From a virus (Duplodnaviria > Heunggongvirae > Uroviricota > Caudoviricetes): a stretch of 7,095 nucleotides of DNA. The stretch lies in the IMG/VR virus record IMGVR_UViG_2734482551_000011; one strand, 5' to 3'. Position 1 is the first letter of the stretch. Each line of letters opens with the position of its first letter. Shown here one piece after another: positions 84 through 832 of the stretch. Below the pieces are notes generated by a model. The model searched no databases. It saw only the letters and a program-made list of their open reading frames with translations, and was not told the origin of the DNA. A program made the translations under genes and the position numbers.

Positions 84-402
84 AGCCTTCTTGAGGCTAC
101 CACCTGTTTTCAGGTGTCATTCAGACGTGATTTGCCCCAGATTGGGAAAGCACGCTTTTTTCTCAGCTATCGTCCTCTTATTTTGCCGTTACATTTCTTT
201 TTGCATTCTAATGATTAATTTACAATAATAATATCGGTAATTATTGAGTAATAATAAATTAATTATTGCAAATGTAATTTAATTCCATCTTCGCGTTATA
301 TTCCAATCTTTAATCTCCGCATGGAACAAGTTGCATGCGTGACTATATTAAGACGACTTATAACCACCAAAACATTTGCTTTGCAAGCAAAAACAGTGAC
401 CA

Positions 403-431
403 TTGACTCTAAGAAAATTCCGATCTATTGT
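403..431 (+). promoter_or_regulatory. Candidate sigma70-like promoter: -35 TTGACT (403..408), 17-bp spacer, -10 TATTGT (426..431)
   Basis: Hexamers and spacing read directly from the sequence. The region is very AT-rich, so promoter-like hexamers arise easily by chance. Confidence 0.15.
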
Positions 432-465
432 TAGGGTCATCAAAGTTACTTAACAGTATTCCGAA

Positions 466-567
466 ATGAAAATACAAAGCAAGCTAATTGTCTTATTAAA
501 CATTATTATTGCATTTATATTATTTGAGCTTTTAGCTCAAAAATTTGGTTTGAGTACATTATTTTAA
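466..567 (+). CDS. Hypothetical 33-aa hydrophobic peptide (MKIQSKLIVLLNIIIAFILFELLAQKFGLSTLF), possible small membrane protein; may not be translated
   Basis: ATG at 466, TAA at 565..567, a single predicted hydrophobic helix. No convincing Shine-Dalgarno upstream, and AT-rich DNA encodes I/L/F/K/N-rich peptides by composition alone. Below the ORF-track length cutoff. Confidence 0.15.
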   Translation: MKIQSKLIVLLNIIIAFILFELLAQKFGLSTLF

Positions 568-716
568 AGCAAGATAAACAATATCGGGCACTCTAGTTTT
601 TATAATTAACAATTAAACGTCCATAAAATGTTATTTACTTTTCTTCGCTATTGTCATATCTTAATATAGTGGCTTACGCCACTCTACTTTCATCACATTT
701 TGTACGTTTATGTACT

Positions 717-746
717 CGCCATGAAGCTCTTTCATGGCGATTTTTT
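717..746 (+). terminator. Rho-independent terminator, plus-strand orientation
   Basis: Perfect 9-bp stem CGCCATGAA (717..725) / TTCATGGCG (731..739) with 5-nt loop GCTCT, followed by A then TTTTTT (741..746). On the minus strand the hairpin is not followed by a U-tract. Confidence 0.5.
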
Positions 747-832
747 ATTCTTAATCCAAGAACATACTCCCTACCTATAGCAAAATCACTTTTTTAACAA
801 AAGAATAACGTATTTAGGTAATCATTACGAAT

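Follow-up and report, generated by a model that had tools for sequence, protein, structure and literature searches.

The window analysed here, a viral DNA stretch of 7,095 nucleotides taken at its full length, holds an AT-rich region between positions 84 and 832 which is bounded on the left by the end of an IS1 element and on the right by a tail fibre assembly gene. The IS1 end (1-83, minus strand) consists of the start of the transposase gene and the terminal repeat; it cuts the accessory region short and sets its left edge. Window positions 1-1000 align to positions 5918-6917 of the locus L002, in which the RefSeq IS1A transposase is annotated at 5248-5945. That the left boundary at 83/84 is an IS1 end had gone unnoticed in the sequence-only reading made earlier of the same DNA. 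The GC-richer right neighbour, tfa (833-1414, minus strand), is recognised by Pfam as Caudo_TAP (4.6e-44) and by PHROGs as phrog_105 (5e-100). Between the two lie a segment identified, through comparisons with the locus L001, as the right-hand tip of a fossil arm left by a serU-integrating lambdoid prophage (84-168), an AT-rich junction filler with the AT-only inverted repeats I1-I3 that fills the space between two module boundaries (169-254), and a tfa-linked module that in several prophage families comes after tfa genes of the TfaQ type (255-832).

Counted on the window sequence, the GC content is 31.5% in 84-832 and 29.4% in 169-832, against 48.5% in tfa and a mean of 53.4% over the rest of the window with N runs left out. 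There is a step at the tfa stop codon, where GC changes from 29.0% at 733-832 to 46.0% at 833-932. The description of the region as an AT-rich island beside tail genes of 53% GC, with a sharp break at the tfa stop, is thus borne out, whereas the 22-25% GC given for it is too low for 84-832 overall. Tiles of 60 bases range from 15% to 48%, and the parts of the region differ among themselves, with 48% in the first 85 nt (84-168), 24% in 169-254, 30.1% in the module 255-832, and 21.6% in the open reading frame (ORF) at 466-567.

It had also been stated that no ORF of 60 codons or more exists on either strand, and none does in 84-832. This absence matches the chance expectation because the DNA is so AT-rich; the longest stop-free stretch is 58 codons compared with 66 +/- 15 in mononucleotide shuffles, 67% of which match or exceed it. 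The short frames listed at that time (plus 466-567, minus 296-403, and a minus frame given as 348-440 that spans 348-443) are all present, but the list was incomplete, as plus 70-228 (52 aa), plus 651-797 (48 aa), and plus 321-434 (37 aa), among others, were missing from it. The frame 70-228 starts inside IS1 and is therefore a chimera. The alternative that the region is the remnant of a degraded gene does not hold up. Nucleotide searches returned no relative with a longer annotated gene, searches with its short frames in Pfam, PHROGs, PADLOC, and PDB sequences gave no matches, and the other short frames are poorly kept, for example plus 321-434 in 22 and plus 651-797 in 14 of 40 haplotypes. 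Within 84-832, the Rfam 15 covariance models run over window positions 1-1500 matched nothing at E values up to 1; their sole hit was IS009 inside tfa.

To judge from its sequence relationships, 84-832 is a remnant of the recombination-built accessory ('b' or moron) region of a lambda-like prophage and not one decayed gene. The earlier suggestion of foreign or cargo DNA was hence right in kind, since the region is a mosaic between tfa and attP/int made of modules common to other prophages. Its breakpoints lie at 168, 255, 287, about 660, and about 750. On the left, the prophage end next to zinT in E. coli 042 shares 97% identity with positions 5551-6085 of L001, a homology that stops at window position 168, and positions 5551-5890 of L001 are 97% identical to the yodB-serU DNA of K-12, ending 62 nt into serU. 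A tRNA-like fragment reported by Rfam on the intact locus turned out to be serU; ARAGORN found no tRNA gene, the fragment being merely the last 62 nt of serU. The 340 bp of host DNA from the serU locus have been removed from this window by an IS1-linked deletion, and the same IS1 junction in L002 is accompanied by the loss of positions 5451-6000 of L001. A second, independent IS1 is located at window position 207 in strain CE0021a. A three-hairpin fold at 84-175 was considered as a small RNA and rejected, as its z is only -1.8 and it is better read as part of the longer prophage-arm module.

In Qin-site prophages the tfa-linked module begins at 255, in sit-linked ones only at 287. Its left part (255-402) is variable and has no conserved ORF, with 17% of the sites differing between lineage consensuses and 15% polymorphic within a lineage. 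An imperfect palindrome in this part (318-339) shows two compensatory pairs in one lineage and mixed pair counts, and it is given no assignment because it is broken in another lineage. At the other end of the module, the spacer from the terminator described below to the tfa stop codon (751-832) varies strongly and has passed from lineage to lineage by exchange; it is 67% identical to lineage D, and L071 carries a D-like tail there.

At least 80% of 84-832 is matched in 280 complete E. coli genomes with identities up to 99.6%, and every full-length match among the matches listed is at least 98.8% identical; some portion of the region is matched in 1,343 complete genomes. The unit with the 33-codon ORF is present in approximately 816 of 5,426 complete E. 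coli genomes, and the accessory region is found also in the phages mEp332, ev099, and PhiR70_1. Intact relatives carry the genes J-lom-stf-tfa followed by 1.5 kb of unannotated DNA, an AraC-type regulator, IS remnants, and int. Both the bio/ybhB-site prophages and the three phages show this gene order with its 1.5 kb gap. The position of the unit is the dispensable region between tfa and attP/int; it is missing, without obvious consequence, from the otherwise similar prophages L005 and L010, and the neighbouring cargo differs by lineage, being the AraC regulator, sitABCD, or a ydfJ junction in three or four contexts. Scanning species-representative genomes for a degenerate peptide pattern and, separately, for a leader pattern turned up no match in other taxa and no copy of the ORF outside E. 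coli-type phages. No feature is annotated under the unit in the RefSeq rows among the matches listed, the 33-codon ORF is likewise unannotated in the three phage records, and the literature gave no record of the peptide string and nothing relevant on mEp332.

The ORF at 466-567 on the plus strand encodes 33 residues, MKIQSKLIVLLNIIIAFILFELLAQKFGLSTLF, with lysines at positions 2 and 6 followed by an 18-residue hydrophobic run (7-24), and it is predicted to be a YncL-like single-pass membrane peptide. The sequence-only reading had listed this frame, passed over it, and called the content of the region unexplained. That verdict no longer applies, as the frame is a conserved and selected small gene that comes with a promoter-like site and a predicted terminator. 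It is intact in all 74 full-length copies recovered by a leader-anchor search, and in lineage D. One haplotype count gave it as intact in 39 of 40; the single failure, L081, has an intact ORF when read directly and is attributed to an alignment artefact. Among lineages A to C, five of the six variable sites of the ORF are synonymous, and this is so in this frame only (P = 0.014). The old copy in lineage D has an equal length, 82% DNA identity, and five of 33 residues changed, with pS = 0.56 and pN = 0.088 and synonymous sites near saturation; under random substitution, an intact ORF with at most five residue changes has P = 2e-4. The dN/dS values for three lineage pairs, taken from four lineages in all, are 0.09, 0.04, and 0.06. 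Within lineages, polymorphism is approximately 10-fold lower in 442-567 (2 of 126 sites) than in the flanks (77 of 420 sites; Fisher 9e-8). Nine short frames of 255-832 were tested in the same haplotypes, and six were broken in 6 to 26 of 40, the frames 321-434 and 296-403 being disrupted in many. Minus 409-477 and minus 661-735 stay open, both inside conserved blocks, and the former has 9 of 22 residues changed in lineage D.

Site-variability profiles over all haplotypes had first suggested a 'conserved core'. These profiles were discounted because lineage breakpoints account for much of the pattern, and they were replaced by within-lineage and synonymous/non-synonymous tests. To state accurately, the uneven conservation of the module is largely a matter of recombination breakpoints, and only the latter tests escape this objection. 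Their results mark ORF 466-567 as a real gene in the evolutionary sense, held under strong purifying selection. They also bear on the reading in which the region is a functionless collection of AT-rich recombination scars and filler, whose ORF is open and similar through recent common ancestry only. Such DNA would be expected to form a mosaic with clear breakpoints, to have lost parts in L005 and L010, to have been hit by IS1 at least twice, and to lack long ORFs to the extent set by chance, all of which is seen. Yet this reading is improbable, as the non-coding flanks of lineage D have diverged to 66-74% identity while the frame, the length, and 28 of 33 residues have been kept despite nearly saturated synonymous sites. 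Nor would it account for the low polymorphism within lineages or for the specific similarity of the peptide to YncL.

Several signals around the ORF point to a plus-strand transcription unit. The predicted sigma-70-like promoter, TTGACT-17 nt-TATTGT (403-431), agrees with the consensus at 9 of 12 positions, a match that alone is not above chance, as the scan found 5 promoter-like sites where 4.4 were expected. This block is 90% conserved in lineage D, where it reads TTGACT-17-TATCGT, and the DNA directly upstream of the -35 hexamer aligns poorly with lineage D, showing numerous mismatches. The short A/U-rich leader (432-465) lacks a Shine-Dalgarno sequence and is 73.5% identical to lineage D; within it, positions 442-465 show no variation in the 40 haplotypes of lineages A to C. 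The ORF is followed by a variable 3' untranslated stretch (568-668), which is 66% identical to lineage D with indels, and in which 16% of the sites are polymorphic within lineages compared with 2% in the ORF. Downstream lies a small hairpin, GTGGC-TTAC-GCCAC (669-682), identified from its pairing and folding energy (-8.9 kcal/mol, z = -4.7) and 100% paired in 39 haplotypes; two variants in it become U-G pairs on the plus strand only. The last element is an intrinsic terminator found by a terminator scan (716-750; -15.2 kcal/mol, z = -5.9), with a 10-bp stem followed by TTTTTTATTC, a U-run on the plus strand only. Its stem is 99.5% paired across haplotypes, and both lineage D and the short variant L005 have kept the terminator. 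The terminator closes the unit, which is convergent with tfa, 83 nt before the tfa stop codon. Folding of the whole unit as RNA gives z values of about -3.2 to -3.7 on both strands, which reflect the hairpins and cannot distinguish the strands.

These elements could also mean that the conserved core acts as an RNA, whether a small RNA, a 3'-end-derived RNA from 660-750, or a dual-function transcript like STnc1110. Conservation of the block 669-740, which takes in the hairpin, the linker, and the terminator, stays at 92-97% even in lineage D, L005 has retained this part alone, and the variants of hairpin 669-682 are compatible with the plus strand only. There is also a precedent in Salmonella, where the yncL locus was first catalogued as a small RNA, STnc1110, initially called non-coding and containing yncL (PMC5437024). 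However, the synonymous bias in 466-567 is a signal at the protein level, the one non-synonymous change of lineage C disrupts a hairpin within the ORF (523-541), and 84-832 has no Rfam match at E up to 1. The stretch 660-750 is as highly conserved in lineage D as in lineage C, for which exchange through recombination is the better explanation. An RNA as the main product is hence unlikely.

By sequence similarity, the phage peptide is a relative of YncL, a small membrane protein of E. coli. Both variants of the peptide match the NCBIfam model NF000537 (YncL), with E = 1.3e-5 and 3.7e-5 at 25.0 and 23.5 bits, which lie below the equivalog cut-off of 35 bits; K-12 YncL scores 68.6 bits. The alignment covers profile positions 1-28 of 30 over 28 mostly hydrophobic residues. 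Nine composition-matched shuffles of the peptide gave no NCBIfam match at all, and the pairwise score against K-12 YncL was reached by none of 20,000 shuffles. The similarity is significant over the full profile and does not depend on composition. In an exhaustive phmmer search, 1.84 billion protein representatives yielded nothing besides the peptide itself and a single frameshifted variant, and the family is therefore very narrow. Like K-12 YncL (b4598), the peptide is short (33 versus 31 aa) and consists of one hydrophobic helix, with an M-x-x-x-S-K/R start, an asparagine at position 12 within the helix, and a K/R-F-G motif closing it at 26-28; 11 of 28 positions are identical and 18 of 28 are positives. 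The two differ in the C-terminal tail, which is LSTLF in the phage peptide and WFI in YncL, and in the Shine-Dalgarno sequence, which is present for K-12 yncL and absent from the leader of the phage ORF. Likewise, K-12 yncL lies between patD and ortT, whereas the phage ORF lies in prophage accessory DNA beside tfa; it does not occupy the patD-ortT locus and is therefore at most a paralogue of yncL.

The production of YncL causes sublethal membrane depolarisation, a phage-shock response, and nucleoid condensation, and it lowers viability (PMC12542507); yncL itself responds to heat shock, minimal medium, and sigma-S (PMC12542507, PMC5437024). A type I toxin-antitoxin pair, in which the hydrophobic peptide would be the toxin and an antisense RNA from the minus strand the antitoxin, could be suspected from these effects of its relative on viability and the membrane, from the size and composition of the peptide, and from a promoter-like site on the minus strand at 657-628. 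This last is the only such site on that strand and it falls in the most polymorphic stretch, with variants of the -35 hexamer at 653, 655, and 657, while the area is 66% identical to lineage D with indels. Moreover, there is no long structured leader that would hide a ribosome-binding site, and neither PADLOC nor NCBIfam gave a toxin-family match, which makes such a pair quite improbable.

AT-rich acquired DNA is typical H-NS territory, and intact phages have an AraC-type gene 1.5 kb downstream, encoded by the strand of tfa and separated from it by AT-rich DNA. Nevertheless, it is very unlikely that 84-832 is chiefly an H-NS-bound regulatory region that silences a YdeO/GadX-like AraC regulator gene together with the end of the late operon, as the regulator has its own good promoter-like site (TTGGCA-18-TATACT, 25-55 nt upstream of its start) that is kept on the far side of IS1 in L002, the module 255-832 occurs also without the AraC gene in Qin-site and sit-linked prophages, the high-affinity motif is not enriched (3 matches versus 5.6 expected), and the selection at the protein level would be left unexplained.

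The region is probably best explained as an accessory patchwork that carries a small moron-type unit on the plus strand with a gene for a YncL-related peptide. In this explanation, 84-168 would be the tip of a fossil attachment-site arm whose donor prophage once sat in the serU tRNA gene, 169-254 would be AT-rich filler, and 255-832 a module travelling with TfaQ-type tfa genes. The unit would be composed of the promoter, a 28-nt leader, the ORF, the 3' untranslated stretch with its hairpin, and the terminator. The promoter may fire in the lysogen, and the peptide may insert into the inner membrane as one helix with the lysine-rich N-terminus inside. By analogy with YncL, it might partly dissipate the membrane potential and provoke an envelope or dormancy-type stress response. 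The terminator may also keep plus-strand transcripts, whether started in the unit itself or in neighbouring cargo such as sitABCD, from extending antisense into the tail genes.

The AT-rich gap after tfa is in itself ordinary, being the patchwork that lambdoid prophages are expected to have at their tail-fibre end. The point of interest is a 33-codon gene that was missed by genome annotation and is carried by cultured phages as well; to the field of small-protein biology it offers a natural mobile paralogue for comparison with YncL. That a host stress micro-protein has a paralogue belonging to the temperate lambdoid phages of E. coli, which would use this membrane-depolarising peptide for lysogenic conversion or against other phages, is a speculative extension and on balance doubtful; its possible uses include triggering a phage-shock or dormancy response, excluding superinfecting phages, and tuning lysis. 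If this is true, approximately 15% of E. coli genomes would hold an unannotated, phage-mobilised YncL-like gene. The conserved 3' block at 660-750 might additionally yield a regulatory RNA. K-12 lysogens of mEp332 or ev099 offer a tractable system for what such peptides do for the phage or the host. The case also illustrates how annotation pipelines and readers dismiss short frames in AT-rich 'empty' DNA, and the serU fossil together with the fossil tfa ends records the swapping of tail-fibre and cargo cassettes between prophage families.

The lambda genes lom and bor are phage morons, i.e., autonomous accessory units in lambdoid phages. The present unit resembles them in its dispensable position beside the tail fibre genes, its patchy presence among related prophages, its low GC content relative to tfa, and its own predicted promoter and terminator, both of which appear conserved; it is far smaller than the classical morons. 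Its location between tfa and attP/int is that of the lambda b region. The gal and bio transducing phages of lambda carry fossil att junctions that arose from aberrant excision. Similarly, the 340 bp of host DNA, which end within a tRNA gene, resemble an old prophage-host junction, although here the host DNA derives from the serU locus while the present prophage occupies the lambda site next to bio/ybhB, and the fossil was therefore inherited by recombination from another phage. With type I toxins such as Hok, Ldr, Ibs, TisB, and ZorO, the peptide shares its short, hydrophobic, and prophage-borne character and a relative, YncL, that depolarises the membrane when produced; unlike them, it comes with neither a conserved antisense RNA promoter nor a long structured leader, and its sequence matches no toxin family.

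The AT-rich stretch at window 84-832 is itself ordinary accessory-region patchwork, and what is new in it is a probable phage-borne gene for a YncL-like micro-protein. The window is the tail end of a lambdoid prophage with its genes on the minus strand, namely J (5480-7069), lom (4651-5409), stf (1414-4521) and tfa (833-1414). Two runs of N, at 3405-3682 (278 bases) and 4661-4935 (275 bases), break stf and lom, leaving both ORFs readable only in part. The stretch has 31.5% GC (29.4% in 169-832) against 48.5% in tfa and a mean of 53.4% in the remaining window, and the step falls at the tfa stop codon (29.0% in 733-832 to 46.0% in 833-932), in agreement with the sequence-only reading. 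Its figure of 22-25% GC was an underestimate for the region overall, as tiles of sixty bases vary between 15% and 48%, with 48% in the opening 85 nt. An ORF scan likewise bore out the claim that no ORF of 60 codons or more occurs, and it also turned up short frames missing from the earlier list. The absence of long ORFs is uninformative, however, since the longest open stretch is 58 codons against 66 +/- 15 in shuffles of the same composition.

The 749-base stretch is found in 280 complete E. coli genomes with identity up to 99.6% (at least 98.8% among the full-length matches listed), and parts of it are present in 1,343 to 1,481 complete E. coli genomes; all copies are chromosomal, and nearly every match listed has no annotation beneath it. 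The cultured phages mEp332, PhiR70_1 and ev099 (genus Radostvirus; n = 3) carry it at 98.5-99.2% identity. In these phages and in an intact prophage adjoining bioA/ybhB, the lambda attachment site, the order is J, lom, stf, tfa, about 1.5 kb without reliable annotation, an AraC-family regulator, IS remnants, attP, int and xis. Hence, 84-832 belongs to a dispensable accessory region, the counterpart of which in lambda is the b region. The AraC-family cargo regulator (250 aa) lies beyond IS1 and outside the window, at 4501-5253 on the minus strand of the intact relative L001, with a good promoter-like site at L001 5307-5278; its closest NCBIfam models, YdeO (2e-43) and GadX, both fall far below cut-offs, and its PHROG, phrog_1450, is of unknown function. 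Within the tfa coding sequence, a full-length match to Rfam IS009 (RF02111; 218 bits, 873-1071, minus strand) was found, and this ‘candidate sRNA’ family appears to describe a conserved 3' portion of tfa genes in prophages.

The borders of the modules, set by pairwise comparison of relatives, reveal a mosaic origin and a truncation by IS1. At 83/84 the stretch abuts the end of an IS1 element (window 1-83) and so has no natural left boundary. The identical junction occurs in strain 2009C-3133, accompanied by a 550-bp loss relative to the intact phages (L001 5451-6000), and in strain CE0021a a further, independent IS1 has inserted at window 207. The tip of a fossil prophage arm makes up window 84-168, the rightmost part of a 536-bp block (L001 5551-6085) that shares 97% identity with a prophage end adjoining zinT in E. 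coli 042. On its left, 340 bp of this block (L001 5551-5890), deleted in the window, show 97% identity to K-12 yodB-serU chromosomal DNA; they run through the final 62 nt of the tRNA-Ser(CGA) gene serU and end there. This host DNA marks an old prophage-host junction, though the present prophage occupies the lambda site near bio; together with the adjoining phage arm it is inherited from an ancestor integrated in serU. The rest of the serU-type arm is gone from the window, removed by the IS1-linked deletion. Next to the tip, 169-254 is AT-rich filler (24% GC) with AT-only inverted repeats, confined in these searches to this phage group.

The remaining part, 255-832, is a tfa-linked module. Copies gathered from E. 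coli genomes and from viral (IMG/VR) and metagenome contigs gave 40 distinct haplotypes, which fall into lineages A (window type), B (Qin type) and C (sit type); an older copy is named lineage D. The module follows TfaQ-type tfa in at least three other settings. The first is the Qin-site prophages beside truncated ydfJ (95-96% identity), in which fossil 3' ends of older tfa genes directly precede the module. Fossil ends at 4892-4995 and 4159-4253 of the relative L003 and at 3211-3310 of L080 (lineage D) are oriented as the live tfa and have about 75% identity to window 832-935; they lie just past the module and are traces of tail-fibre cassette replacement. The second comprises prophages with the sitABCD iron/manganese transporter operon as cargo neighbour, which in lineages C and D (L009 1-2765; L080 1-3013) lies on the plus strand toward the module and terminator; the L080 cargo also includes a Bcr/CflA efflux gene. 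The third consists of shortened versions retaining 666-832 alone, or 255-382 plus 799-832.

A simple signal scan of the module found, on the plus strand, a promoter-like site at 403-431 (TTGACT-17-TATTGT), the match alone being not above chance, a weak terminator-like hairpin at 523-541 and, at 716-740, a strong one that runs into TTTTTTATTC. For this strong terminator hairpin (-15.2 kcal/mol, z = -5.9), only the plus strand offers a U-run. In a separate small hairpin at 669-682, the two variants at 673 and 681 keep the pairing as U-G, again on the plus strand only, which fits a plus-strand orientation of the unit; both this hairpin and the terminator are conserved. An imperfect 10-bp palindrome, CGCATGGAAC/GTTGCATGCG at 318-339, shows two compensatory pair changes in lineage C and is broken in lineage B.

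Between the promoter-like site and the strong terminator lies a 33-codon ORF (466-567, plus strand), one of the frames in the earlier list, whose leader has no Shine-Dalgarno sequence. The product, MKIQSKLIVLLNIIIAFILFELLAQKFGLSTLF, has two lysines followed by a hydrophobic run of 18 residues and then a short tail. When copies were collected by a leader anchor leaving the frame unconstrained, the ORF was intact in 74/74 full-length copies of lineages A-C. Six of its sites vary among these lineages and five of the six are synonymous, which no other reading frame matches (P = 0.014 for at least 5/6, given the observed transition/transversion mix). As recombination breakpoints distort plain conservation profiles, within-lineage polymorphism alone was counted; variable sites number 2/126 in 442-567 against 77/420 in the flanks (Fisher 9e-8), and 2/102 in the ORF against 16/101 in the adjacent 3' stretch (P = 4e-4).

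Lineage D, an older copy of 81% identity recovered by sensitive search, is represented by L080 (a canine isolate) and L081 (an intact viral contig). Its ORF has the same start, stop and length, and the peptide, MKIQSKLIILLNIIFALILFKLLAQKFGLYTLF, differs at 5/33 residues. Comparison with the window copy (Nei-Gojobori) gives pS = 0.56, pN = 0.088 and dN/dS = 0.09, the remaining lineage pairs giving 0.04 and 0.06; an intact ORF with at most five residue changes has P = 2e-4 under 18 random substitutions of the same kinds. Non-coding DNA has drifted further, to 73.5% identity in the leader and 66%, with indels, in 568-668. The promoter block is 90% identical (TTGACT-17-TATCGT), and directly upstream of the -35 hexamer the alignment is poor with many mismatches. 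In L080 (strain Eco_23-2667) an IS2-like element of the IS3 family (about 3640-4960) sits a few bases past the small-ORF stop and splits the ORF from the terminator.

Nine short frames of 255-832 were tested, and six of them are interrupted in between 6 and 26 of the 40 haplotypes; plus 321-434 is intact in 22/40 and plus 651-797 in 14/40. Minus 409-477 and minus 661-735 remain open but lie inside conserved blocks, and the former has 9/22 residues changed in lineage D, hence no protein-level conservation. The single failure of 466-567 in this count is taken to be an alignment artefact for L081, in which the ORF is intact on direct reading. From this evolutionary evidence we conclude that 466-567 is probably a protein-coding gene under purifying selection. 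The unit was located at 941 places, spread over about 816 of the 5,426 complete E. coli genomes, and no feature is annotated beneath the ORF in any match listed or in the three phage records.

Other readings fare less well. The well-kept 660-750 block may give rise to a 3'-end-derived RNA, but the lineage D version of this block seems to owe its identity to a recombination exchange with lineage C. An RNA-only function of the conserved core is argued against by the synonymous bias in the ORF and by an internal hairpin that is broken in lineage C. A type I toxin-antitoxin locus would be a rival reading of the small ORF, yet there is no conserved antisense promoter. Similarly, the stretch could be chiefly an H-NS-silencing upstream region for the YdeO/GadX-like AraC regulator, but that gene has its own proximal promoter-like site, the module is also found without it, and the H-NS motif is not enriched. 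Both the comparison with lineage D and the shortage of variants within lineages contradict a reading as pure spacer.

The preferred reading is that 403-750 would be a moron, an autonomous accessory unit with its own promoter, transcribed opposite to the tail genes. The peptide would form a single inner-membrane helix with its lysine-rich N-terminus inside and, by analogy with YncL, might lower the membrane potential and trigger an envelope or dormancy-type response. The terminator would stop the transcript of the unit as well as plus-strand transcription from neighbouring cargo; it lies 83 nt from the tfa stop codon, which would spare the late operon antisense transcription. Although conceptually unsurprising and of inferred function, the gene gives small-protein and prophage biology a useful lead that can be tested.

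In NCBIfam, both peptide variants match NF000537, the model for ‘stress response membrane protein YncL’, across profile positions 1-28 of 30 (E = 1.3e-5 and 3.7e-5; 25.0 and 23.5 bits). These scores lie under the 35-bit curated cut-off for the equivalog; K-12 YncL scores 68.6 bits. Nine composition-matched shuffles gave no NCBIfam match at E up to 10, and 0/20,000 shuffles attained the observed pairwise score against K-12 YncL. Sequence searches of Pfam, PHROGs, PADLOC and PDB with the peptide found no match, and exhaustive phmmer against 1.84 billion representatives returned nothing besides the peptide itself, called by gene callers in two records only, and a 43-aa frameshift variant. This variant (P0002, two Logan contigs) has a one-base change in an A5/T3 run near codon 26 and may reflect either an error of sequencing or an uncommon frameshift allele. 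No copy turned up in species-representative genomes from other taxa, and the family is narrow.

YncL is a verified membrane protein of 31 aa, with expression raised in minimal medium and after heat shock (PMC12542507, PMC5437024). When produced, it depolarises the membrane sublethally, sets off the phage-shock response and condenses the nucleoid (PMC12542507). Salmonella yncL lies within a sigma-S dependent RNA originally listed as a non-coding sRNA, STnc1110 (PMC5437024), and YncL is an apparent in vivo substrate of the intramembrane protease RseP (PMC10470546). K-12 YncL (MNVSSRTVVLINFFAAVGLFTLISMRFGWFI) and the phage peptide are identical at 11/28 positions and positive at 18/28, and have in common an N-terminal M-x-x-x-S-K/R, an asparagine within the helix and a K/R-F-G closing the helix. 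The YncL gene is at the patD-ortT locus, whereas the phage gene lies elsewhere and its peptide falls short of the family cut-off; hence, the peptide is best called a YncL-like paralogue rather than YncL.
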